A stretch of 12,837 bases of DNA from a virus. Its lineage: Duplodnaviria > Heunggongvirae > Uroviricota > Caudoviricetes. Shown here piece after piece: positions 1,045-12,837 of the stretch. The notes under the pieces were generated by a model. That model was not told the origin of the DNA. It did not search any database and saw nothing but the letters and a program-made list of their open reading frames with translations. The stretch lies in the IMG/VR virus record IMGVR_UViG_643692022_000004; one strand, written 5' to 3'. A program made the translations under genes and the position numbers. Numbering within the stretch: position 1 is the first letter of the stretch; the number at the start of each line of letters is the position of its first letter.

Positions 1045-1066
1045 TGGTGGGCTGGCGGAGTTTGAA
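1045..1066. other. Distal attachment site (attL-like): degenerate direct repeat of the ssrA 3' end
   Basis: tggtgggctggcggagtttgaa versus the ssrA 3' terminus tggtggagctggcgggagttgaacc at 12436-12460 (shared blocks tggtgg / gctggcgg / agtt / gaa), in the same orientation and again adjacent to a copy of the terminator hairpin. Confidence 0.45.
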
Positions 1067-1200: not shown

Positions 1201-1500
1201 CAGGAAAAAATTTTTTTTCGAAAGAACTGTTCACACTGTTCACCCTTTGATTTTCTCCTTTTATTTCATAGTGATAGGTGGTGAATAATGGGTGAAGGGT
1301 GAACATTCGATTCTTCACCTCCGGCATTCTGCCGGTGTGACTCATACCGGTGATTAATCCCCCGTACTGAAAATCGCACAGGGAGAAAAAAGTTTTTTTT
1401 GATTTGATTGTTCACACTGTTCACCTTTCATTTTTCTCTTTTAATTTCAGTGTGATAACGGGTGAACATACGGTGAAGGGTGAACAGTGGATTGTTCACC
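1201..1500. repeat. crr-like cis replication region: two ~120-bp direct repeats carrying TGTTCACC-type octamer iterons
   Basis: Unit 1 (~1201-1320) and unit 2 (~1381-1500) each begin with an A-run/T-run and contain tgttcaca, tgttcacc and inverted ggtgaaca copies (e.g. 1228-1244, 1298-1305, 1409-1425, 1461-1468, 1479-1486, 1493-1500). TGTTCACC is the recalled binding octamer of the P4 alpha C-terminal domain. Confidence 0.7.
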
Positions 1501-1518
1501 TTCGGGGAATTCAGGGAT

Positions 1519-1543
1519 AAAAAAAGACCGGCAGATGCCGGTC
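1519..1543 (-). terminator. Rho-independent terminator of the leftward operon, just after alpha
   Basis: On the minus strand a 7-bp stem GACCGGC/GCCGGTC (1526-1532 / 1537-1543) with a 4-nt loop is followed by a 7-T run (1519-1525), 8 nt after the alpha stop codon at 1551-1553. Confidence 0.55.
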
Positions 1544-1550
1544 AGGTGGG

Positions 1551-3884
1551 TCAGGCTGTTGCAGGGTCGTCACATTTTGGCAGCCAGTCGCCGTAGCTTT
1601 CCTCTTTCAGTGTCAGGTTGGTCTGTATCCCCTGTTTGGTATGGCGCTTCTCGTAATTCAGTCCGTATTCCTTCAGCATCACCGGCAGCCCCAGCCCGAA
1701 CATTTTCAGACTGAGTACATTCCGGTAGCCGTTTGCCTCCATGTAGGCCAGATAGGCGTGATAGAGGTATTTACGGTAATTACGCGGGATGATACTGGCG
1801 TTCCCCATATACATGCCGCTGGTCTGCGGCAGGGTTTCCAGATAGCCGATAAAATCAAACGTCGGGTCGGCATCCCGTTTGATGTTCAGTGCCTCGTCTG
1901 AGTTCTGCTGGGACTGAAGCAGTGACCGGGCGAGCATCGGGTCGCTGAACTTCTGCATCAGGTGACGCACGATGACCGCCAGCTCGCGGGTGATTTTGTC
2001 CTTAAGCTGCGGGTCGCGCTCCTGCGGGGCTATCTGTTCCGGGAAGTGAATAATCACCCGCCGGCGTGACACGCCGCCGCTGCGGTCGGTGAAGCGCATC
2101 GGGTTATTGTTCACGGCCAGAATCACCGCCGGGATGTGCGTGGAGTACGCATCCCGGTATTTCGGGTCAACGGACACTGCATCGCCGCCGGTGATGGCCT
2201 TGAGTCCGGCTCCGTCGCCGCTCCATTTTTCCTGGTCCGGCAGGCGTATCAGTGAGAAGCCAGTTAACGCGGCACGTTCACGCGGGGATTCCAGCGTCTC
2301 AATGGTGGCCGACGTGGCGTTATCCTCACCGGCCAGCAGGGTGGCTATTTCGGCCATGATACTTTTGCCGCTGCCGCCGGGACCGGTCACCTCCAGAAAG
2401 AGCTGCCAGTCGTAGCGGTTTGCCAGCACCATAAACAGTGCGGCCAGAATCACGTCGCGTTTTTCCGCACGACCACCGGCAGCACGGTCAAGCCAGCGCC
2501 AGAACGCGGGAGCGTGGGTTTCCAGCGTTTCACCGTCCACCGGCGGGGTGAAATCCACATCACACAGGGTACGCATCCAGTGTGACGGACTGTGCGGGTG
2601 GAACGTACCGTTCTGCGTGTCGAGCACGCCGTTACGAAAGCCAATCAGGCGGCGGGAGGGGGCTTCCTGCTGCGGAATAATCAGCTTCAGGGTGTCCACC
2701 ACGGAGGCCACCTTCCCGGAGGAGAATGGCGCGCGCAGACGCTGAAACAGCCCGGCCACATCCCGGGCAAAGTCCTGTGGCGGCAGCACCTTCCAGACAC
2801 CATTTTCATAGCGGGACAGAAGCTGGCCGTTGGCATCGACCGCGAGCGCCTCGCCGTAATGCTCATAGATACGCATGGCCTTTTCGCTGGTACTCATGGC
2901 GGAAAACTCCGCTTCGCTCATGGTGTCGAACGGGCTTTCAGCCGGTGGCCGGATGGCATCATAAATGGCCTTACGGGTGGCCTCCCCGCCGTACTGCGTG
3001 AAGGCATCATTCCAGTCACCGAAGACCGGCGGCAGGGCAACAACACCTTCACACGCATCTGCGGCTGCGGCGGCTTTTTTCTGGCCGTCACCGCTGAGGT
3101 CACGGTCAGCGGCAAGGACAATCTGACAGGCGGGGTGCTTCTGCCGGGCAAGGCTGGCCAGAGAAAGGAGGTTCACGGAAGAAAGCGCCACCATCACCGT
3201 TTCACCGGTCAGGTGATGCACGGTAAGTGCGGTCGCGTATCCCTCCGCTATCCACAGACGTTTTCCGGCCTGATTCTGTCCTTCAAGGATGTGACAGGTG
3301 CCCCTGACCTGTCCGCCTTTCAGGGTGCGCTTACGGCCGTCAGCACTGATTAACTGAAGGTTAACCAGTTCGCCGCGGTCGTCATACAGTGGCACCACAA
3401 GGTCACCGGCGCGCCAGCTCACGCCACCGGCTCTGTGTGTGCCGGTCAGCATCCGGCATTCCCGGCCGGGAAAGCCCTTGCGGGTCAGGTAGGCGTTACC
3501 GGTTCCGGGACGGGTTTTCGCCATCAGGGTTTGTGCCAGTGCGGCGGCGTTCTTCCGGGCAGCGTCTGTTTCAGCAACAGCGGCGGTCGTCACTGCCGGG
3601 TCAGCCGGGGGCAGGCTGCCGGTCACGGCAGCCACCTTTGCGGCCGCATCGGACGGGGAAACACCAAACACCTTTTCAACCAGTTTCAGGCCGTCACCGG
3701 CACCACACTGATTGCAGTACCAGGTGCCGCGCCCCTCCCTGTCATCAAAACGGAAGCGGTCACTCCCGCCACAGACCGGACAGGGCTGATGACGGTTCTT
3801 CAGCACCTGAATCCCCAGCGCCGGGAGGATACGCGGCCAGTGGCCGAGTGCATGGCTGACGGTGGCGGTTACGTTCATTTTCAT
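1551..3884 (-). CDS. alpha: P4 alpha-type primase-helicase (777 aa)
   Basis: ATG at 3884 with AAGGAG RBS. N-terminal zinc-binding primase motif CPVCGGSDRFRFDDREGRGTWYCNQCG, Walker A VTGPGGSGKS of a D5/SF3-type helicase, and length matching the recalled 777 aa of P4 alpha. Flanked by its cognate octamer iterons. Confidence 0.95.
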   Translation of the reverse strand: MKMNVTATVSHALGHWPRILPALGIQVLKNRHQPCPVCGGSDRFRFDDREGRGTWYCNQCGAGDGLKLVEKVFGVSPSDAAAKVAAVTGSLPPADPAVTTAAVAETDAARKNAAALAQTLMAKTRPGTGNAYLTRKGFPGRECRMLTGTHRAGGVSWRAGDLVVPLYDDRGELVNLQLISADGRKRTLKGGQVRGTCHILEGQNQAGKRLWIAEGYATALTVHHLTGETVMVALSSVNLLSLASLARQKHPACQIVLAADRDLSGDGQKKAAAAADACEGVVALPPVFGDWNDAFTQYGGEATRKAIYDAIRPPAESPFDTMSEAEFSAMSTSEKAMRIYEHYGEALAVDANGQLLSRYENGVWKVLPPQDFARDVAGLFQRLRAPFSSGKVASVVDTLKLIIPQQEAPSRRLIGFRNGVLDTQNGTFHPHSPSHWMRTLCDVDFTPPVDGETLETHAPAFWRWLDRAAGGRAEKRDVILAALFMVLANRYDWQLFLEVTGPGGSGKSIMAEIATLLAGEDNATSATIETLESPRERAALTGFSLIRLPDQEKWSGDGAGLKAITGGDAVSVDPKYRDAYSTHIPAVILAVNNNPMRFTDRSGGVSRRRVIIHFPEQIAPQERDPQLKDKITRELAVIVRHLMQKFSDPMLARSLLQSQQNSDEALNIKRDADPTFDFIGYLETLPQTSGMYMGNASIIPRNYRKYLYHAYLAYMEANGYRNVLSLKMFGLGLPVMLKEYGLNYEKRHTKQGIQTNLTLKEESYGDWLPKCDDPATA

Positions 3885-3898
3885 GGTGTTGTTCTCCT

Positions 3899-4219
3899 TC
3901 AGTGCAGTACCGGCGCTTTTATGTGACGGGCACAGAGTTCATCCATCACAACCAGCCCGAGAAAGGACAGCGACGGCGCGGCCTTCAGGGGGCCGGATTC
4001 CATTAAATCTTCCAGCAGGGCACAGGCTATCTGACGCCCTTTTTCCTCACCGTGCTGGTGCAGATAAAAGCCTTCCAGCTCAGCGGCGATGGCCGCCTCC
4101 AGTGACTCAAGGGTGAGATGCGGGTAGCGGTGCTGACGTTCGCACACGGTCAGCCAGGCACAGGCGACAGCGCGACGGTAAAGGGCAGCGCGTAAGACGG
4201 GCGGTAAGGGGGTTTTCAT
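3899..4219 (-). CDS. P4 orf106-like hypothetical protein (106 aa)
   Basis: ORF of the length and position of P4 orf106, between orf151 and alpha; its stop (3899-3901) overlaps the alpha RBS. Function unknown. Confidence 0.7.
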
Positions 4220-4354
4220 TTGTTTTCCTCCCTGTGACAGATGACTGCATTCCGTGCCGGTTGCATTAACTGATAAGGCATATCTGCGTCTCCTGAAGAC
4301 GTGCGTATCCCTGCGCGAATACGCACATTTAATTTTTCGGGTGTCGTTTTTTAA

Positions 4355-4810
4355 TTACAGATAATTGCGGTAACTGTTATCCGGGGTGATTTCCGGGTCA
4401 GGCTCCGTGCGGGGAATTTCCCGCCATTCCCGCGCCACCGGTGCCGCCCGGCTGACCGGAACAGGGTCCTGCGGGTAAATATCCAGATATTTCTCCCGCC
4501 ATTTCTGTAATTCCGGGTCTCCGGCCATTTCTTTCAGTACCGCATGCCGGTTTACGGGGCTGCGTTTAAACAGGTCAGGACGGTCACAGGTAAATTCCCG
4601 CAGAAAACGCCCCAGCGGGATGTCTGTGGTGCGCCCGTCAGCGAGGATACGCACAAGGATACTGAATTTACGGCGGTACGGGTTCCAGACAATGTCCGGG
4701 CAGCGGTACGGCATTTCCCACGGAATACCGTCTTCCAGAATGCCGACCACGGCCACATCGGGAAAACCGGCAGAACGGTAAATCTCACCAGGCTGGGGAA
4801 AATCAAACAT
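4355..4810 (-). CDS. P4 orf151-like hypothetical protein (151 aa)
   Basis: ORF of the length and position of P4 orf151; its ATG (4810-4808) overlaps the epsilon stop (4803-4805), suggesting translational coupling. Confidence 0.7.
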   Translation of the reverse strand: MFDFPQPGEIYRSAGFPDVAVVGILEDGIPWEMPYRCPDIVWNPYRRKFSILVRILADGRTTDIPLGRFLREFTCDRPDLFKRSPVNRHAVLKEMAGDPELQKWREKYLDIYPQDPVPVSRAAPVAREWREIPRTEPDPEITPDNSYRNYL

Positions 4811-5090
4811 GCGTCCTGTCTCCCCGGTCTTTCTGCTGGGCGAGAAAATCGCGGCACAGGCCTTTGGCTTTCAGCTCATTCAGCACAAAATCAATATCTT
4901 CATTCAGGTAGCTGAAAATATGCGGAATGTAGAGCTGATGCAGGCCGGAGAGTTCACGGTGAATCAAATCACCCCCAACAAACTGGGATACGGCGCTGGC
5001 GCGGTTGAGCTTATGGTAAGCCTCAATGCTGAGGTGTTCACGGGCGTCATGACGCGCTGAGACGGTCTGAGGGGCTTTTTTATTACGCAC
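4803..5090 (-). CDS. epsilon: Epsilon-like protein (95 aa; P4 anti-repressor that derepresses the helper prophage)
   Basis: Position immediately downstream of the immunity region and upstream of orf151/alpha, as in P4. The start appears to be GTG (5090-5088) preceded by a G-rich RBS. Identity rests on synteny and size, not on a recalled sequence. Confidence 0.6.
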
Positions 5091-5283
5091 GGGACACCCC
5101 CATCACTGGCAGACGGGCAGCAAGGGAGAGCACATAGTCACGGACAAGGGAACGGCGGGCGCTGCGTTCATCACCGGCGACGGTGCGAAGCATGCAGATA
5201 CGGGGATGACGGTCTGCGCGACGGACAGCCGCAAACACAAAGACAAATTCAGGGTGTGAAGGGGTAAGGGTTGTAGCCATGAT

Positions 5284-5402
5284 GGCAGCCTCCGTTAGAT
5301 AGCAGGTTACGCTATCGCCGGAGTTTCCACGCTCGATGGCGATAGCCCAGACGGGGGTGGAAATACCGGCTCTAACGGATACCGGCCAGCCCGGAGGCTG
5401 CC
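5284..5402 (-). ncRNA. Candidate CI-like immunity RNA (structured RNA in the P4 immunity region)
   Basis: Perfect 11-bp long-range inverted repeat ggcagcctccg (5284-5294) / cggaggctgcc (5392-5402) enclosing a perfect 9-bp hairpin gctatcgcc (5311-5319) / ggcgatagc (5338-5346). The locus lies between vis and epsilon where P4 encodes the CI RNA. Exact ends are uncertain. Confidence 0.3.
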
Positions 5403-5528
5403 CCGCCTGAGCTACCATTGACTCTGCGGCATAATGAGCGGACGCGGGCAGGATGCACGGAGTGCCATCTGCTCGACTGACCACACACCACACCATAATC
5501 TGGCGCTCTGTGGCGTTGATTGCGACAC

Positions 5529-5550
5529 AAAAAAAGACGCATGGCGCGTC
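5529..5550 (-). terminator. Candidate attenuator/terminator hairpin in the leader between the early promoter and the CI-like RNA
   Basis: On the minus strand the stem GACGC/GCGTC (5546-5550 / 5536-5540) with loop GCCAT is followed by a 7-T run (5529-5535). The stem is short, so the call is weak. Confidence 0.35.
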
Positions 5551-5613
5551 ATATGTCGCCGTTAGATTGCTCGGGTTTCCACGCCCGGCTGCCGATTTTG
5601 CGACAGCGGAAAA

Positions 5614-5643
5614 ACTATATCCGCAAATGCCGGAAAAAGGCAA
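5614..5643 (-). promoter_or_regulatory. Candidate sigma70 promoter (PLE-like) downstream of vis
   Basis: On the minus strand TTGCCT (5643-5638), an 18-bp spacer, then TATAGT (5619-5614), directed toward the immunity region and epsilon. Hexamer match by eye only. Confidence 0.25.
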
Positions 5644-5678
5644 GCCAGAAAAAGGGAGTTTTTGCAGAGCGGGCATCA

Positions 5679-5945
5679 TCATGCGTCGTACCCCCGTTTG
5701 CGTCCGGCAATGCGCCCGGCCATCCATGCGGTGACTTCAGAGTGCAGCCAGGCCACATTTTTACCGCCAAGACTCACCTGCGGCGGAAATTCCCCCTTAC
5801 GGATGAGTTCATAGATGGTCGAGCGTGACAGGCCGCACAGGTGCATCACTTCCGGAAGACGTAAAAAACGCTCCTGTGTGATGTCCGGCAGCGGCATCAG
5901 TGGCGTCACAGGGGCGGGAGACGGGGAAGAAAAAACAGCTTGCAT
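5679..5945 (-). CDS. vis: Vis-like excisionase/transcriptional regulator (88 aa; AlpA/Xis-type helix-turn-helix)
   Basis: 88-aa ORF with a GAGG RBS. Contains the AlpA/Vis-type motif [45 protein letters not shown]. Same size and position as P4 orf88 (vis) between the late promoter region and the immunity region. Confidence 0.8.
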
Positions 5946-6090
5946 CGGGCTACCTCGTTAATGTCCATACAGCACCGGATAAGTCCGTCCGGCTTCGGGT
6001 AGCGCTTTATTTTGTGAATATTTTCAGCAGACGCAACAGGGGGGATTTGTTCCGGCAGCCTTACAATGCTTGTGTATTTTTTGTTCATCT

Positions 6091-6120
6091 CCACTTAAAG
6101 TCATTTAAAGCCACTTAAAG
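6091..6120. promoter_or_regulatory. Three phased 10-bp direct repeats upstream of vis (candidate Vis/PLL operator)
   Basis: ccacttaaag / tcatttaaag / ccacttaaag are exactly contiguous with 10-bp periodicity, about 150 bp upstream of the vis start codon. Confidence 0.3.
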
Positions 6121-6224
6121 CAATTCGTAATTTTTATAGTGAAATACAAATCGTTTTTTCTTATTCATTCCCGGCGAATTAATAAAAACAAACAGTAATA
6201 AACAGCACAAAAAGCCCATCAACG

Positions 6225-6328
6225 GGTGAACAGTGGTGAACAGACGGTGAACAGTCATTACTGCGATTGTTCACCCTTTAACTTACTGTATTACTTATCT
6301 TTTTTCTTATGGTGAACAGAGGTGAACA
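6225..6328. repeat. ori-like replication origin: cluster of six GGTGAACA/TGTTCACC octamer iterons
   Basis: ggtgaaca at 6225-6232, 6235-6242, 6246-6253, 6311-6318, 6321-6328 and tgttcacc at 6268-6275, followed by an A/T-rich stretch (6331-6350). Same octamer as in crr, and located between vis and sid as in P4. Confidence 0.65.
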
Positions 6329-6408
6329 GTAAAATATAAAAAAAATAAACAGTAAGCCGTTTTTTCCAGCGACCTTTTCCTGGCTTGCCGGTGTGAGGAT
6401 GAGTCTCC

Positions 6409-6426
6409 TGTGTCAGGGCTGGCACA
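6409..6426 (+). promoter_or_regulatory. Psid-type late promoter activator site (TGT-N12-ACA dyad for Delta/Ogr-family activators)
   Basis: TGTgtcagggctggcACA, centred roughly 80 bp upstream of the sid ATG, consistent with the recalled P2/P4 late-promoter architecture (dyad centred near -55). Confidence 0.5.
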
Positions 6427-6498
6427 TCTGCAATGCGTCGTGTTGTTGTCCGGTGTACGTCACAATTTTCTCAACCTGAAGTGACGAGGAGCCGGAAA

Positions 6499-7233
6499 AT
6501 GTCTGACAACACCATCCCTGAATATCTGCAACCCGCACTGGCACAACTGGAAAAGGCCAGAGCCGCCCACCTTGAGAACGCCCGACTGATGGATGAGACC
6601 GTCACGGCCATTGAACGGGCAGAGCAGGAAAAAAATGCGCTGGCGCAGGCCGACGGAAACGACGCTGACGACTGGCGCACGGCCTTTCGTGCAGCCGGTG
6701 GTGTCCTGAGCGACGAGCTGAAACAGCGCCACATTGAGCGCGTGGCACGCCGGGAGCTGGTACAGGAATATGACAATCTGGCCGTGGTGCTGAATTTCGA
6801 ACGTGAACGCCTGAAAGGGGCGTGTGACAGCACGGCCACCGCCTACCGGAAGGCACATCATCACCTTCTGAGTCTGTATGCAGAGCATGAGCTGGAACAC
6901 GCCCTGAATGAAACCTGTGAGGCGCTTGTCCGGGCAATGCATCTGAGCATTCTGGTACAGGAAAATCCGCTCGCCAACACCACCGGCCATCAGGGCTACG
7001 TCGCACCGGAAAAGGCTGTCATGCAGCAGGTGAAATCATCGCTGGAACAGAAAATTAAACAGATGCAAATCAGCCTCACCGGCGAGCCGGTTCTCCGGCT
7101 GACCGGACTGTCAGCGGCAACACTTCCTCACATGGATTATGAGGTGGCAGGCACACCGGCACAGCGCAAGGTGTGGCAGGACAAAATAGACCAGCAGGGA
7201 GCAGTGCTTAAGGCCAGAGGACTGCTGTCATGA
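6499..7233 (+). CDS. sid: Sid-like capsid size determination (external scaffold) protein (244 aa)
   Basis: ATG at 6499 preceded by AGGAG (6486-6490); the track ORF begins 66 nt further upstream but lacks an RBS. The product starts MSDNTIPEYL and is 244 aa, the recalled length of P4 Sid. First gene of the sid-delta-psu operon. Confidence 0.85.
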   Translation: MSDNTIPEYLQPALAQLEKARAAHLENARLMDETVTAIERAEQEKNALAQADGNDADDWRTAFRAAGGVLSDELKQRHIERVARRELVQEYDNLAVVLNFERERLKGACDSTATAYRKAHHHLLSLYAEHELEHALNETCEALVRAMHLSILVQENPLANTTGHQGYVAPEKAVMQQVKSSLEQKIKQMQISLTGEPVLRLTGLSAATLPHMDYEVAGTPAQRKVWQDKIDQQGAVLKARGLLS

Positions 7234-7730
7234 TTTACTGCCCGTCGTGTGGACATGTTGCTCACACCCGCCGCGCACATTTCATGGACGATGGCACCAA
7301 GATAATGATTGCACAGTGCCGGAATATTTATTGCTCTGCGACATTTGAAGCGAGTGAAAGCTTTTTCTCTGACAGTAAAGATTCAGGAATGGAATACATT
7401 TCAGGCAAACAGAGATACCGCGATTCACTGACGTCAGCCTCCGGCAGTATGAAACGCCCGAAAAGAATGCTTGTTACCGGATATTGTTGTCGGAGATGTA
7501 AAGGCCTTGCACTGTCAAGAACATCGCGGCGTCTGTCTCAGGAAGTCACCGAGCGTTTTTATGTGTGCACGGATCCGGGCTGTGGTCTGGTGTTTAAAAC
7601 GCTTCAGACCATCAACCGCTTCATTGTCCGCCCGGTCACGCCGGACGAACTGGCAGAAATCCTGCATGAAAAACAGGAACTGCCGCCAGTACGCTTAAAA
7701 ACACAATCATATTCGCTGCGTCTGGAATGA
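7230..7730 (+). CDS. delta: Delta-like late transcriptional activator (166 aa, tandem Ogr-type zinc-finger domains)
   Basis: Start overlaps the sid stop (ATGA at 7230-7233). Two Cys4 modules: CPSCGH...CRNIYC and CRRCKG...CTDPGC. Length equals the recalled 166 aa of P4 Delta. Confidence 0.9.
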   Translation: MIYCPSCGHVAHTRRAHFMDDGTKIMIAQCRNIYCSATFEASESFFSDSKDSGMEYISGKQRYRDSLTSASGSMKRPKRMLVTGYCCRRCKGLALSRTSRRLSQEVTERFYVCTDPGCGLVFKTLQTINRFIVRPVTPDELAEILHEKQELPPVRLKTQSYSLRLE

Positions 7731-7803
7731 GGGCTGCCGGTTAACACCGGCCGTCGCCGCACACCGTATTTTTATTCTTCACCATGATGAGAAAGAGATA
7801 ACG

Positions 7804-8376
7804 ATGGAAAGCACAGCCTTACAGCAGGCCTTTGACACCTGTCAGAATAACAAAGCAGCATGGCTGCAACGCAAAAATGAGCTGGCTGCGGCCGAACAGG
7901 AATATCTGCGGCTTCTGTCCGGGGAAGGCAGAAACGTCAGTCGCCTGGACGAATTACGCAATATTATCGAAGTCAGAAAATGGCAGGTGAATCAGGCTGC
8001 CGGTCGTTATATTCGTTCGCATGAAGCCGTTCAGCACATCAGCATCCGCGACCGGCTGAATGATTTTATGCAGCAGCACGGCACAGCACTGGCGGCCACA
8101 CTGGCACCGGAGCTGATGGGCTACAGTGAGCTGACGGCCATTGCCCGAAACTGTGCCATACAGCGTGCCACAGATGCCCTGCGTGAAGCCCTTCTGTCCT
8201 GGCTTGCGAAGGGGGAAAAAATTAATTATTCCGCACAGGATAGCGACATTTTAACGACCATCGGATTCAGGCCTGACGCGGCTTCGGTGGATGACAGCCG
8301 TGAAAAATTCACTCCTGCGCAGAACATGATTTTTTCGCGTAAAAGTGCGCAACTGGCATCACATCAGTCTGTGTAA
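7804..8376 (+). CDS. psu: Psu-like polarity suppression / capsid decoration protein (190 aa)
   Basis: 190-aa ORF starting MESTALQQAFDTCQNN, matching my recollection of P4 Psu in sequence start and length; last gene before cos. Confidence 0.9.
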   Translation: MESTALQQAFDTCQNNKAAWLQRKNELAAAEQEYLRLLSGEGRNVSRLDELRNIIEVRKWQVNQAAGRYIRSHEAVQHISIRDRLNDFMQQHGTALAATLAPELMGYSELTAIARNCAIQRATDALREALLSWLAKGEKINYSAQDSDILTTIGFRPDAASVDDSREKFTPAQNMIFSRKSAQLASHQSV

Positions 8377-8411
8377 AACTCCCCGAAAATCCGCCCGTTT
8401 TTACTGAAAAA

Positions 8412-8450
8412 AGCCATGCATCGATAAGGTGCATGGCTTTGCATGCGTTT
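8412..8450 (+). terminator. Candidate terminator of the late operon
   Basis: 8-bp stem AGCCATGC/GCATGGCT (8412-8419 / 8431-8438) followed by a T-containing tail (ttgcatgcgtttt), about 35 nt after the psu stop. Confidence 0.4.
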
Positions 8451-8540
8451 TCCTGCCTCATTTTCTGCAAACCGCGCCATTCCCGGCGCGGTCTGAGCGT
8501 GTCAGTGCAACTGCATTAAAACCGCCCCGCAAAGCGGGCG

Positions 8541-8559: not shown

Positions 8560-8575
8560 TGCGCGCTTAAGTATA

Positions 8576-11026
8576 TTATTGTTTTGCACTTAAAATATTA
8601 TCAACAACTCGTTTCACACTTTCGAAAGATGACTCTCCTGTTTTAAAAGATTCGTTCATGTCAAAATAACTAGGTTTATTTACAAAACTACTCCAAGCAT
8701 TTGACAGGTAATCTTTGAATGCAATGGAGCGTTTATATCGATCCTCAATATTGAATGACTCACATGAAGCTCGCATATTATTGACTACTTCAGGATTAAA
8801 TATAGGAGTGTCAAATACCATTGCATCAAGATAGGCGAAATCACTTATCCATCGCTTGAGATGATACAAACCAATAGATGTGATTCTAAATTTCGTTGGC
8901 ATTTCTCCTATTAAACCTGTTTCGTCCTCTTCAAATGTAAACCTCTGTGAGGTCTCTATTAATTTTTTGTTTGTCGTTCTTCTTAGCGCATTTTCAGTCT
9001 GCTCAGGAATAAAACCAAGGCTTTGCATTTCATCTATAATGGACTTGGTTAGACAGAATCCATCCCGGTCCTGAAGCTCTTTTTTTTCTGATAATAGCGC
9101 CATTATTAATGGTACTAAAAAGTGTTCTGATATATCTGCAAAAGAAACATCAAAAATATTCATGGCAAGAGATGTGTTTGGATCAAAGTGTGAATATTCA
9201 CCAAGTAAAGCTTGTTTAGAAAATTCATGTACAGGAATTATATATCTACCTTCTTCTTCGTAAGTTCGAATTATTTTATCCGCTTCAACATTTGGGCTGC
9301 CTATAAAACCAGTAATAAAGCTAAGCGCTTGTCTTACATTGCCTCCCGTAATGTTTTCAATAAACTCTCCTAGTGATTTATTTTTTCTTAGAGATTGAAG
9401 CAATACTCTGATAAATGAAGAAAGATTGTCTATATGGATTCTAACAAATTCGGCATGTTCAAGAGGTATCTTTCCTTCAGACATTTCGAGAGCAAACTGA
9501 AGTCGTTTATCAAGAACTTGATCTATCCTTGGTGGTGCAATTGTAAAGACCTTGTGGGGATAAGCAGTTAATGCACCTGATGCTTTTGATTTAAAGAATG
9601 TCTGAGGTCTGACAGATATAAATACTAAAGCATTCCAATCTTTTGCTAACTCCTGAGAAATAACAAATGCTCGCTGTTGCGTTTCGAAATCTCGTTGATC
9701 AGCATTATCTAGACAAATAATTACTTGCTTTTTAGTTTGTTTTGATAAATGAGCGATTGAGTTTTTTAAATGTTCATCTTTAGCATCTAATTTTTCCGCC
9801 AACATCTCAAGTTGTTTTTCCTCATATCGTTCTCTATTTGAATCTCGTAAACTCCCCCAGATTCCTTTTGAAAACCTTTGAATATCTCTTGAATATACGC
9901 CTTTAACAAATTTCATTTCGGTTATATCACAGGAGTATTTATTGTCTAGTTGTTGCTCTATCTCATTTAATATAAATTTTTGAAGATTATTAGCTAATGT
10001 TGCTTTAGAGCCTAAATCTATATATAAATAAATTGCCTCTTTAAATTCTTTGAATGCACTTGAATAAATTAAATTTTTTACAAATGACGTTTTACCAACA
10101 CCAACATCACCAATTAATACAATTGGACGCTTTGATAGAGCCTCGGCCATAATACTTGGATCTAAAGTTTGCTCTTTACGATCAGGTTTAACAGAAGTTA
10201 TATGTGGAGATAATTCATTGTCACTAAATAGAGCAGCATATCTGGCTTGAAGCATTTCTTTACTTAGCAAAGCATATTTTGAAAGGGCACCACTTTCGCA
10301 GTAGCATTTTTGGTAAAAAATCTCTTCAATTTCATTGCTTTCAAGAGCATCTTGAATTATTAATTCTGATATTTGTCTTAATGAGGTCTGTATATCACTA
10401 GCATAGCGTATTTTAGGATACATTGATAAATAGGTTGATAATTTATTTGGAATACCACTTATGTCAGAGGTAAGATACTTAATTAAACGTTGTTCTTTCA
10501 CACCGTAATATGAAAGCATATTCCATGCTAAAGAAAAGTTCCGTAATAAAGAATCCAAACTGTCAAAAACTAAAGCTTTTCCCTCTAAAGGCGAACAGCC
10601 ATTTTGAGTGCTTGCAATAAATGATATAAATTGATGTCCATTAGTGGCTATTGCAATTGGTGTTCCTCGTGATGAACAATATTTTTGTACCTGTATAATT
10701 GCGTCTTTTAAATCGTCATTTGATCTTAAGAGAGTTGGTATGTCGATTATGTTCTTATTTGATAAACCTGCTGGTATTTCAAAAGTCCGGCCTTCTCTTT
10801 TCGCTTCAACAATAACTTGCCGTGGCTTTCCTAATTCATAATCTGTAAAAGTATGATCATGATAGTTTTCAACTTCTATTTGATCATCAGGCCAGCTAAG
10901 AACGTCAATAATTATTTTGTTTATTATATGATGCCTAGTCTGGGCTTCATTTCTTATCTTGGCGCTGTCACTATATTCGTTTACTAATTCTCTTAATAAA
11001 TTTTCGGCTTGTATCATTGTAACCAT
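8576..11026 (-). CDS. Candidate anti-phage defence protein: N-terminal PD-(D/E)xK nuclease (HsdR-N/Mrr-like) fused to a P-loop NTPase with a C-terminal domain of unknown function (816 aa)
   Basis: Uninterrupted 816-codon ORF, ATG at 11026 with GGAGAG RBS 7 nt upstream. Residues ~26-76: NEAQTRHHIINKII...IEVE...DYEL...VIVEAKREG, the E/D/ExK pattern of HsdR-N/Mrr-type nucleases. Walker A GDVGVGKTS (~306-314), extended Walker B VIICLDNADQ (~435-444), and GGNVRQAL (~561-568) resembling an AAA+/STAND sensor motif. No SF2 helicase motifs. Sits in the P4 psu/cos-int slot; strongly AT-rich against a GC-rich backbone. Confidence 0.85.
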   Translation of the reverse strand: MVTMIQAENLLRELVNEYSDSAKIRNEAQTRHHIINKIIIDVLSWPDDQIEVENYHDHTFTDYELGKPRQVIVEAKREGRTFEIPAGLSNKNIIDIPTLLRSNDDLKDAIIQVQKYCSSRGTPIAIATNGHQFISFIASTQNGCSPLEGKALVFDSLDSLLRNFSLAWNMLSYYGVKEQRLIKYLTSDISGIPNKLSTYLSMYPKIRYASDIQTSLRQISELIIQDALESNEIEEIFYQKCYCESGALSKYALLSKEMLQARYAALFSDNELSPHITSVKPDRKEQTLDPSIMAEALSKRPIVLIGDVGVGKTSFVKNLIYSSAFKEFKEAIYLYIDLGSKATLANNLQKFILNEIEQQLDNKYSCDITEMKFVKGVYSRDIQRFSKGIWGSLRDSNRERYEEKQLEMLAEKLDAKDEHLKNSIAHLSKQTKKQVIICLDNADQRDFETQQRAFVISQELAKDWNALVFISVRPQTFFKSKASGALTAYPHKVFTIAPPRIDQVLDKRLQFALEMSEGKIPLEHAEFVRIHIDNLSSFIRVLLQSLRKNKSLGEFIENITGGNVRQALSFITGFIGSPNVEADKIIRTYEEEGRYIIPVHEFSKQALLGEYSHFDPNTSLAMNIFDVSFADISEHFLVPLIMALLSEKKELQDRDGFCLTKSIIDEMQSLGFIPEQTENALRRTTNKKLIETSQRFTFEEDETGLIGEMPTKFRITSIGLYHLKRWISDFAYLDAMVFDTPIFNPEVVNNMRASCESFNIEDRYKRSIAFKDYLSNAWSSFVNKPSYFDMNESFKTGESSFESVKRVVDNILSAKQ

Positions 11027-11049
11027 CGAAAACTCTCCAAATGAAAAAA

Positions 11050-12249
11050 TTAAAAGGATAAAGATTTATGAACAAAAGAACTCCACCAGTTCATTAAATT
11101 CTTCCTTTGTTCTAAGTAAGTAGAACGGTTATAAGCTTTTCTGACTTCATTCTTATCGCTATGAGCTAAGGCTGATTCTATTACATCAGCGTTAAATTCG
11201 GCTTCATTCATTGCAGTGCTGGCAATAGAACGTAAACCATGAGCAACGAGTTTTCCACCATATCCTATCCTTTTTAAAGCGGCATTTGCAGTTTGGCTAT
11301 TCATGGGTTTTTGTGGATCATTTCTACTTGGGAAAACATACTCACGATGAGCACTAATAGTTTTCATAACTTCAAGAATATCTAAAGCCTTAGGTGATAA
11401 AGGTACAATATGTTCGCGCTTAGCTTTCATCCTTTCAGCAGGAATTCTCCAGAGTTTTGCATCAAAATCGATCTCCTTCCATTGAGTGCCTGAAGCCTCT
11501 GAAGGGCGCACAAGGGTGAGTAGTTGCCATTCAATCAGACAACGGGTCTGCACAGAAAGATTTGACATAGATAAAGAATACATAAGTTTCGGTAATTCTT
11601 CAGGTCGTAGTGTTGGCATGTTTTTCTTTTTAGGTTTCTCAAATGCCATACCAATACCTGATGCAGGATTAGCGTCAATTAAGCCAGTATTAACGGCATA
11701 AATCATAATTTCATTAATACGTTGTACCAAACGACGAACAGTTTCAAGTGCTCCACGAGCTTTAATTGGTTCTAAGGTTTCAATTAATGTACGAGCTTTT
11801 ATTTTCTGAACAGGAATTTCACCGATAGTAGGGAAAATATCTCTCTCTAAGGAGCGCCATACATCCTTTGCGTAATCAGGTGTTACGTTGTTTCTTTTTA
11901 TGGCAAACCATTTTGAGGCAACGTTTGAAAAAATACTATCTTCCGCAATCTGTTGCTGTACAGTGACTTGCTCACTGTATATCTGTGGATCAATACCTCG
12001 GGCCAGCAAGGAAAGATACTCAGCACGAGTGTTTCTGGCTTCAGCCAGAGAAAGGGCAGGGAAAGACCCTAAACCAATCATGGTTCGTTGTTTTGTTACT
12101 GGTTTCTGGTATCGGAAACGCCACAGCTTCCTACCGTTCGTTTTTACGAGTAGAAAAAGTCCATTACCATCATGTAGCGTTAGATCCTTTGCAGTTGCTT
12201 TAGCCCGTGATAGTTCAGTGTTAGTAAGAGGGCGTGTTGTACGTGACAC
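11050..12249 (-). CDS. int: Tyrosine integrase (P4-family, 399 aa), ssrA-specific
   Basis: N-terminus typical of P4-family integrases (...RPLTNTELSRAKA...LHDGNGLFLLVKTNGRKLWRFRY...), C-terminal catalytic region with HGLR and a tyrosine in KAYNRSTY. Apparent GTG start at 12249 with a GAGGT RBS. Directly adjacent to the ssrA 3' end. Confidence 0.9.
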   Translation of the reverse strand: MSRTTRPLTNTELSRAKATAKDLTLHDGNGLFLLVKTNGRKLWRFRYQKPVTKQRTMIGLGSFPALSLAEARNTRAEYLSLLARGIDPQIYSEQVTVQQQIAEDSIFSNVASKWFAIKRNNVTPDYAKDVWRSLERDIFPTIGEIPVQKIKARTLIETLEPIKARGALETVRRLVQRINEIMIYAVNTGLIDANPASGIGMAFEKPKKKNMPTLRPEELPKLMYSLSMSNLSVQTRCLIEWQLLTLVRPSEASGTQWKEIDFDAKLWRIPAERMKAKREHIVPLSPKALDILEVMKTISAHREYVFPSRNDPQKPMNSQTANAALKRIGYGGKLVAHGLRSIASTAMNEAEFNADVIESALAHSDKNEVRKAYNRSTYLEQRKNLMNWWSSFVHKSLSF

Positions 12250-12271
12250 GATTATCCTACCTCAGAGAGAA

Positions 12272-12323
12272 TTGGTATACGCTTTTAGGTATACATCTTA
12301 CCGTATACCTAAACGTATACCAA
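12272..12323. promoter_or_regulatory. Cluster of four arm-type integrase-binding-like repeats between int and the att core
   Basis: ttggtatacg (12272-12281), aggtatac (12287-12294), cgtatacct (12302-12310), cgtataccaa (12314-12323): two motifs in inverted then direct orientation, and the same pair recurs at 1120-1141. Overlaps the expected int promoter. Confidence 0.4.
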
Positions 12324-12367
12324 TAATCACTGGATTTAGCGGGATATTCTCGGACAACTGCGGACAC

Positions 12368-12386
12368 AAAAAAGCCCACAGGGCTT
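12368..12386 (-). terminator. Rho-independent terminator downstream of ssrA, supplied by the element
   Basis: On the minus strand AGCCC-tgt-GGGCT is followed by a 6-T run (12368-12373), about 50 nt beyond the tmRNA 3' CCA end. Confidence 0.5.
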
Positions 12387-12435
12387 GTGCCATGCGGGCT
12401 TTCAGGATTTTTCCGGACATATCCGGAAGAGCAAG

Positions 12436-12798
12436 TGGTGGAGCTGGCGGGAGTTGAACCCGCGTCCGAAATTCCTACATCCTCGGTACTACATGCTTAG
12501 TCAGTCTTTACATTCGCTTGCCAGCTGCGGACGGACACGCCACTAACAAACTAGCCTGATTAAGTTTTAACGCTTCAACCCCAGGCAGGGCTTCCACGCG
12601 ATCTCTTTTGGGTTTGACCTCTCTTGATCCCCGTCCTAAGAGCGGAGGCTAGGGAGAGAGGGCTCTAAGCAGGTTATTAAGCTGCTAAAGCGTAGTTTTC
12701 GTCGTTTGCGACTATTTTTTGCGGCTTTTTACGAGGCCAACCGCCCCTCGGCATGCACCTTGGGTTTCGCAAATCCCGTCGAATCCAGAATCAGCCCC
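12436..12798 (-). ncRNA. ssrA: tmRNA (transfer-messenger RNA)
   Basis: Reverse complement begins GGGGCTGATTCTGGATTCGACGGG and ends ...GGTTCAACTCCCGCCAGCTCCACCA; contains the tag reading frame GCAAACGACGAAAACTACGCTTTAGCAGCTTAA (ANDENYALAA). 363 nt, matching E. coli ssrA as recalled. Confidence 0.95.
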
Positions 12799-12837
12799 AA
12801 TGTGTAACAGTAAGTATACCAGATTTATGAGCGCCAT

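Follow-up and report, generated by a model that had tools for sequence, protein, structure and literature searches.

Arm-type sites, short repeats beside the crossover core that are bound by a second domain of the integrase, are best known from phage lambda, whose attachment site (attP), with the arm sites P1, P2 and P'1 to P'3, belongs to the textbook example of a heterobivalent integrase. The integrases of lambda and of HK022 share the same arm-site specificity and differ in core specificity. The arm repeats in the attP of the satellite phage P4 were reportedly first described by Pierson and Kahn in 1987. Here we analyze a stretch of 12,837 nucleotides (record IMGVR_UViG_643692022_000004 of IMG/VR, Caudoviricetes; "the window" below means this whole stretch), which carries a P4-like satellite element at the 3' end of the transfer-messenger RNA (tmRNA) gene ssrA. 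A preliminary description of the window had pointed to repeated GTATACC motifs at both ends of this element as candidate binding sites for integrase or excisionase, overlapping the promoter of the integrase gene int. We report the positions of these repeats, the homology of their layout with that of P4, their conservation and their co-variation with the N-terminal domain of the element's integrase (Int). Very probably they are the Int arm-type sites of an ssrA-inserted P4 satellite and enclose the predicted int promoter, where Int would bind and repress its own gene. Such sites are a real feature of a kind already well understood from P4, KplE1 and lambda.

For P4, the GenBank record (NC_001609 / X51522) annotates six 12-mers as 'attP arm sequence repeat': one inside int, an inverted copy at the start of int (3915-3926), and direct pairs at 3942-3965 and 4151-4174, with the core at 4078-4097 and crr beginning at 4291. 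According to PMC2951348 and PMC7286903, P4 Int binds the DNA of its own promoter directly and so acts as its repressor (Piazzolla et al. 2006 as cited there), and the excisionase Vis is reported to down-regulate int. In KplE1 (CPS-53), the arm-type sites of the integrase IntS overlap its promoter PintS, and both the binding of IntS and its repression of PintS were shown experimentally (Panis et al. 2010, PMC2951348).

Six Repeats in the Layout of the P4 Arm Sites

Four of the repeats lie directly upstream of int (the int-proximal cluster, 12272-12323) and two at the other end of the element (the int-distal pair, 1120-1141). On the plus strand the proximal direct pair reads CGTATACCTA at 12302-12311 and CGTATACCAA at 12314-12323, with a spacing of 12 bp. 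These two sites face int on the minus strand, and on this int-sense strand site 1 (12314-12323) is TTGGTATACG and site 2 (12302-12311) is TAGGTATACG. The other two proximal sites have the opposite orientation (plus strand): site 4 (12272-12281), again TTGGTATACG, is the exact reverse complement of CGTATACCAA, and site 3 (12286-12295), TAGGTATACA, is the reverse complement of CGTATACCTA with one mismatch. Sites 3 and 4 make up a direct pair facing the other way, and the four proximal sites together an imperfect palindrome. At the distal end, CGTATACCTA at 1120-1129 and CGTATACCAA at 1132-1141, the outer member, recur 12 bp apart on the minus strand (TAGGTATACG and TTGGTATACG in the int sense), the inner member 61 nt from the core remnant. 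The 23-mers 1120-1142 and 12302-12324 are 96% identical. The direct, inverted and distal pairs are all present as the preliminary description had them.

The motif is confined to these places. GTATACC matches seven times on both strands of the whole window, a count reached in none of 200 dinucleotide-preserving shuffles (mean 0.60, maximum 4). Six of the seven fall in the four-site cluster and the two-site pair, a search with the 10-mers at 0-1 mismatch returned these six arm-repeat sites and no copy inside int, and nowhere else in the element does GTATACC occur. The possibility that it is common throughout the element or its genomic surroundings was examined in 1.48 Mb of related Enterobacterales loci, where the background is low: 180 copies lie within arm clusters, and outside the att arms the density is 0.075 per kb, below the uniform expectation of 0.122 per kb. 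The seventh copy in the window (12814-12820) lies outside the element, in TGgTATACT directly upstream of ssrA, and many relatives have the corresponding match, some 570 nt ahead of int. This copy is probably the (extended) -10 of the host ssrA promoter, its likeness to the arm sites being coincidental.

The geometry of the repeats is that of the P4 attP. Spacing within each pair is 12 bp in P4 and in the window, the distance from the end of the proximal pair to the start of the core is 113 bp in both, that from the core start to the distal pair 73 bp in both, and that from the inverted copy to the pair 27 bp in P4 and 28 bp in the window. In a MAFFT alignment the P4 repeats fall in the same columns as those of the window: site 1 aligns with P4 3954-3965, site 2 with 3942-3953 and site 4 with 3915-3926, and the distal sites 1132-1141 and 1120-1129 are the positional equivalents of 4163-4174 and 4151-4162. 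Since the geometry agrees within 1 bp and the alignment columns are the same, the window repeats are positional homologs of the P4 arm repeats; for site 3 (12286-12295), P4 has no equivalent repeat annotated. The sequences are different, TTGGGGGCAYA (TTGGGGGCA) in P4 versus TTGGTATAC / TTGGTATACG in the window, with only the TTGG start in common, as expected for a different integrase specificity.

As in lambda, the repeats are unrelated to the core and flank the crossover on either side at less than about 150 bp (113 and 73 bp), a separate N-terminal domain would read them, and candidate accessory-factor sites lie between arm sites and core. The two systems differ in the fold family of the N-terminal domain, in the sequence, number and orientation of the sites, and in the int promoter, which in lambda does not lie within attL.

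A P4 Satellite with an Exchanged Recombination Module

Positions 1205-8540 of the window are 98% identical to P4 4291-11624, and the match across the cohesive (cos) end continues to 8566. The protein encoded by alpha is 99.5% identical to P4 alpha, the product of vis (5679-5945, minus strand), an AlpA-family excisionase, is identical to P4 Vis at 87 of 88 residues, and two RNAs of the P4 immunity region, C4 and isrK, also occur in the window. Int, a tyrosine integrase of 399 amino acids (int, 11050-12249, minus strand), is only 36% identical to P4 Int. Its domains are, in order, an N-terminal arm-DNA-binding domain (PF13356, Arm-DNA-bind_3; residues 8-90, E = 1.4e-22), a central domain (PF22022, 107-198) and a catalytic domain (PF00589, 213-378); the Protein Data Bank (PDB) entries 3ju0 and 3jtz match residues 8-98 in the N-terminal domain.

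The block that differs from P4 comprises 8567-12436 plus 1045-1204 and runs from just after cos through a cargo gene for an 816-aa ATPase and int to the attachment region; its breakpoints are sharp, one coinciding with the first base of crr and the other lying just past the cohesive end. Because only this one block, contiguous in the circular form, differs, the element is a P4 satellite in which a module of cargo, int and attP directed at the ssrA 3' end has been exchanged. It has in common with P4 the satellite backbone (98% identity outside the module), the PF13356-type integrase family, the TTGG start of the repeats and a set of phased TCC boxes between proximal pair and core. It differs in its target, which is leuX in P4 and the ssrA 3' end here, and, unlike P4, it has four proximal repeats, the additional one being weakly conserved, and none inside int. 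Its proximal arm also includes a copy of the ssrA terminator.

The position of int resembles KplE1. The tmRNA gene ssrA (12436-12798, minus strand) is directly followed by int in the same orientation, with 186 nt between the ssrA end at 12436 and the int start at 12249, i.e., an intergenic region with room for an attL, the arrangement by which PMC2951348 recognizes integrase genes of this kind. KplE1 also has int directly downstream of its target RNA gene in the same orientation. Its attL covers the intS promoter, with arm-type sites around the -10 element and the start, as is predicted for the window, and there the sites of the directionality factor TorI overlap the intS promoter as well (PMC2951348). 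The integrases are of related families, and the central domain of the CPS-53 integrase (2kj8) matches the window Int. KplE1 differs in its target (argW), its site sequences, its directionality factor and in the experimental standing of binding and repression, which in the window are predicted.

Conservation and Concerted Change of the Repeats

We compared 79 loci encoding relatives of Int (56-84% identity) from many genera of Enterobacterales (individual loci are cited by labels such as L079). In almost all of them the ssrA end lies about 180-195 nt upstream of int, and repeats recur at about -70, -58, -43 and -29 from the int start. They exist in two versions, GGTATAC (type A) and GGTACAC (type B), and all copies in a locus are of one type; more distant integrases have GGCATA (L079) or GGTACC (L080) in the same places. 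Within a type, sites 1, 2 and 4 hardly vary: site 1 is an exact GGTATAC at about -70 in nearly all type-A relatives and GGTACAC in type B, and site 4 is kept at about -29 in nearly all relatives, as GTGTACC in type B. Site 3 is exact in about one third of the type-A and one quarter of the type-B loci and reads GTATGCC, GTATCCT or GTGGGCC elsewhere; it is probably a weak or optional site.

The distal pair, with its 12-bp spacing, lies about 55 nt from TTCAGACTCCGCCAGC, at the outer edge of the alignable attP sequence. Of 24 elements with the far end in view, 21 have distal and proximal repeats of one type (14 A-A and 7 B-B). The three elements with mismatched ends are a rearranged one with psu next to alpha (L048) and two with truncated int genes (L071 and L072), and they look like decayed A/B hybrids. 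The truncated int of L071 (Pantoea sp. R13S299, about 10001-10350) has type-B residues up to about amino acid 40 and type-A residues after, and the ends of this element are type B proximally and type A distally; it looks as if tandem A and B elements had recombined to produce it.

In L129, L156 and L192, another integrase (MAKIAKKLTDTEIK...) follows in tandem about 170-260 nt after a type-A distal junction, with a repeat of its own (GGGTCC / GGGACCC) immediately upstream of its start codon. Judging by these repeats, every integrase lineage at ssrA seems to have an arm code of its own at this position.

The Predicted int Promoter and Its Overlap with the Repeats

On the int-sense strand, the copy of the ssrA terminator ends near 12362 and the ribosome-binding site lies at about 12260, so that the int promoter must fall in some 100 nt that are mostly occupied by the repeats. 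The predicted promoter Pint (12295-12323, minus strand) consists of a -35 element TTGGTA (12323-12318), a 17-nt spacer and a -10 element TAAGAT (12300-12295), with transcription starting near 12288. Its -35 element is formed by the first six bases of site 1, site 2 lies in the spacer, the -10 element falls between sites 2 and 3, site 3 coincides with the predicted start, and site 4 belongs to the leader (the predicted 5' untranslated region), 23 nt ahead of the GTG start codon of int. Nearly every locus that keeps sites 1 and 2 has TTGGTA-17 nt-TAnnnT in the same register (L062, with CACGAT, is the exception), and the first, second and sixth bases of the -10 element (T, A and T) are constant while its inner bases vary across loci, the type-B element being TATAAT. 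It is from this conservation that we infer the identity of Pint. The overlap of repeats and int promoter proposed in the preliminary description agrees with this picture, a conserved promoter candidate being embedded in the four-site cluster. Because the cluster encloses Pint, Int bound to it should repress its own transcription; position and precedent thus suggest negative autoregulation, as reported for P4 and KplE1.

Which Protein Reads the Repeats

To consider which element-encoded protein would recognize the repeats, we used 36 elements with int, vis and alpha all in view (22 of type A and 14 of type B). Sixteen columns of the Int alignment separate the two types perfectly, 14 of them within the first 102 amino acids (Fisher p = 1.8e-7). 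Int residues 1-100 are 83% identical within types and 66% between them, versus 84% and 81% for residues 101 to the end. In the same 36 elements no column of Vis or alpha separates the types. One base differs between A and B in every copy of the arm site, and the N-terminal domains differ at positions 4, 11, 13, 23, 57 and others; GGTATAC goes with T4, T11, L/I/M23 and M57 and GGTACAC with I/M/V4, N11, F23 and N57. As the type of the repeats tracks the Int N-terminal domain, and Vis can be the same across types, the repeats appear to be read by this domain and not by Vis. Of the proposal that they are integrase or excisionase sites, the integrase part is upheld by their presence on both arms, the P4 positions, the PF13356 domain and the co-variation; the excisionase part is not supported.

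The element's own Vis, binding the repeats to direct excision and to repress int, nonetheless had to be weighed as their reader. The element does encode Vis, its P4 counterpart is the protein reported in PMC7286903 and PMC2951348 to down-regulate int, and the cluster lies on the int-proximal arm, the usual place for directionality factors. Yet this Vis is 99% identical to that of P4, whose repeats at the same positions are TTGGGGGCA and not TTGGTATAC, and repeats that differ entirely under a nearly identical protein leave Vis unsupported as the reader. Vis is moreover 100% identical between the type-A loci L014 and L026 and the type-B locus L043, its identity within one type falls to 47%, and the distal copies of the repeat would be unusual for a directionality factor. 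A better candidate for Vis is found in four boxes of the form (A/G)TCCnG with exact 10-bp phasing (12332-12364, minus strand), between the terminator copy and site 1. Three of them (TCCGAG, ATCC and AAATCC) have alignment positions shared by P4, type A and type B, and the AAATCC box is invariant in 8 of 8 aligned rows, including L079 and L080, whose Int arm repeats differ. This conservation with P4 fits Vis better than do the GTATACC repeats, and the phased boxes may be its binding sites. Altogether, we hold it very unlikely that the repeats are Vis sites.

The palindromic arrangement of the proximal cluster could also be mainly structural and comprise no protein sites: the DNA might extrude a cruciform, or the int leader might fold into an RNA hairpin with control over transcription or translation. 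The arms 12263-12284 and 12311-12332 are 82% complementary, and between types A and B the T-to-C change in site 1 is paired with an A-to-G change in site 4, so that complementarity is kept; but inverted copies of one protein site stay complementary automatically. What speaks against a structure is that site 2 changes in concert though its inverted partner, site 3, is degenerate in most loci, and that the purely direct distal pair, without inverted partner, does so too. No Rfam family matches at the cluster and, because the predicted start lies inside the palindrome, the transcript would hold only one of its arms. We therefore rate a mainly structural role as highly improbable. Much the same low probability applies to the repeats being operators of an element or host transcription factor that controls int only, with no part in recombination. 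Their overlap with the predicted int promoter is what such operators would show, but the second pair lies on the other arm, far from any int promoter in the prophage and just as distant from the core as in P4; of all that was tested, only the Int N-terminal domain co-varies with the sites, and a host factor would not change specificity between elements in the same genera. Finally, GTATAC is a short AT-rich palindrome of the kind that may turn up in intergenic DNA, as its coincidental further copy in the ssrA promoter (12814-12820) illustrates. The shuffles, the fixed positions in about 80 loci and the low background already refute an origin by chance or composition, to which we assign a negligible probability.

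Proposed Role of the Repeats and Points That Weigh Against It

The repeats, six copies of T(T/A)GGTATACG, would then serve as arm-type sites for the element's own tyrosine integrase and be required for its recombination. The N-terminal domain of Int (about residues 1-100) would bind the arm sites and its C-terminal domains the core, and Int molecules bridging arms and core would assemble the intasome for integration; excision would in addition require Vis at another place on the proximal arm. Within the prophage, the four-site cluster stays directly upstream of int and encloses the only plausible int promoter, where bound Int may hold down its own expression.

Several points tell against this interpretation or temper it. 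Types A and B are also clades, so the co-variation with the N-terminal domain is not fully independent of phylogeny. The agreement between arms and int could partly reflect linkage: int and attP form one contiguous block in the circular form, and linkage thereby contributes to the agreement of the two ends, although it does not account for an identical base change in every copy. The predicted Pint matches the consensus at only 8 of 12 positions, and for this reason was not called by a consensus promoter scan of 12150-12837, the sole match of which was weak and on the plus strand. Site 3 (12286-12295) is poorly conserved and may be non-functional. Lastly, the remnant of the ssrA end at the distal junction is one T short of the attP/attB core, for which our interpretation offers no explanation.

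Core, Ends and Intact Attachment Site

The core or crossover region (12436-12450, minus strand) comprises the 15 terminal nucleotides of ssrA, which read CCGCCAGCTCCACCA in the sense of that gene and are regenerated by the element. The identical 15 nt are present in the intact attP of a circular relative, L207 (IMGVR_UViG_2600255186_000010, 10,182 nt, from an isolate genome), which came out of pattern searches in IMG/VR: a regular expression run on the first batch retrieved only an A-to-B tandem junction in L164, and a junction-specific pattern then retrieved L207. This P4-like sequence is circularly permuted with its break inside alpha, which suggests an element in the excised or plasmid state, or assembled from one, and its Int is 81% identical to that of the window. 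The order in its attP is distal pair, 55 nt, TTCAGACTCCGCCAGCTCCACCA, terminator copy, four-site cluster and int. From this attP it follows that the two prophage ends join into one attachment region of about 265 bp whose core includes the last 15 nt of ssrA. The extent of the site in the window is now fixed accordingly, with the proximal arm and core at 12272-12450 and the distal arm at 1059-1141.

The distal junction (1045-1066, minus strand) consists of a core-type half site, TTCAAACTCCGCCAGC, followed by the displaced remnant of the ssrA end without one T (CCACCA). Its sequence, TGGTGG-GCTGGCGG, repeats the ssrA end TGGTGGAGCTGGCGG (12436-12450) with one base missing. E. coli relatives are homologous to the element from 1043-1050 onward, and TTCAGACTCCGCCAGC is kept at the distal junction in types A and B, the flanks beyond it being variable. 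The T is present in the intact attP of L207 and in some attR sites (GCCAGCTCCACCA). The remnant without it, GCCAGC-CCACCA (window 1045-1058), recurs in several genera (L007, L031, L048, L064, L067, L129, L156 and L164).

Between the core and the proximal arm sites lies the element-borne copy of the ssrA terminator (12362-12402, minus strand), a hairpin followed by a T run, which is 82% identical to a displaced copy at 954-1015. In the distal arm, the AT-rich spacer 1067-1119 holds a conserved AAAGTTGAAT-like block beside the pair, as seen in the alignment, and is a candidate bending or accessory-factor site; inspection by eye found no convincing match in this spacer to the consensus of the integration host factor (IHF), WATCAANNNNTTR.

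Flanking Sequences, Cargo and Iterons

To the left of the element, 835-1066 is 85% identical to the K-12 ssrA-intA (CP4-57) intergenic region, with no integrase following; including the second terminator copy (954-1015), it looks like a degenerate att arm left over from a previous island of a tandem array. The far-left flank (1-315 and 423-593) matches DinI-like and S24-peptidase genes (86% identity to Nissle 1917) and repetitive intergenic sequence common in E. coli, and in no E. coli genome of the collection compared does this flank adjoin ssrA. In many E. coli genomes ssrA is occupied by close relatives of the element; these usually carry different cargo, and a second island often comes next.

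The 816-aa P-loop ATPase is encoded at 8576-11026 (minus strand), in the variable 'hotspot' of P4 between cos and int. It has weak matches to AAA families in Pfam and a weak PADLOC match (mad8, E = 2.5e-4), and is possibly an uncharacterized anti-phage gene. Among the E. coli matches listed, only SC467 covers this gene; the other listed relatives carry SIR2, NACHT or other cargo. Iterons of the sequence TGTTCACC occur in two 120-nt direct repeats (crr, 1204-1505) and in the ori region (6218-6346); they match the annotated 'ori type 1 repeats' of P4 and are an already known feature.

Meaning of the Arm-Site Types

Types A and B resemble lambda and HK022 in being a natural pair of close integrases that have moved apart in one of their two DNA-recognition functions, but they are the reverse case: the core is the same (TTCAGACTCCGCCAGC and the ssrA end) and the catalytic halves are 81% identical, whereas, unlike in lambda and HK022, the arm sites and the N-terminal domains (66% identical) have diverged. 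One could imagine that this divergence was selected to make satellites competing in tandem at one att site mutually orthogonal; the Int of one element would then be unable to assemble on the arms of its neighbor and to excise or delete it. We put this forward as a speculative and rather unlikely idea. Arrays of an A followed by a B element do occur (L007 and L164), and the tandem junctions found, two A-to-B and one A-to-A (which equals the circular attP), are too few to tell whether tandem arrays favor unlike types or to test for selection.

In the literature searched, the site sequence was not found for an ssrA-targeting integrase lineage, the motif strings matching unrelated primers only, and nothing specific turned up on arm-type sites at the tmRNA gene. 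To our knowledge, no DNA complex of a PF13356 arm-binding domain has been solved.

For the P4 family, the comparison means that the recombination module was exchanged as one block, with cargo, int and both arms, between cos and crr. It leaves the current understanding of how such integrases work unchanged, and the A/B pair is a tidy natural specificity switch of modest interest. It nevertheless provides a specific and cheaply testable recognition pair for the poorly characterized PF13356 domain, and could help to design orthogonal integrases that share one target site.

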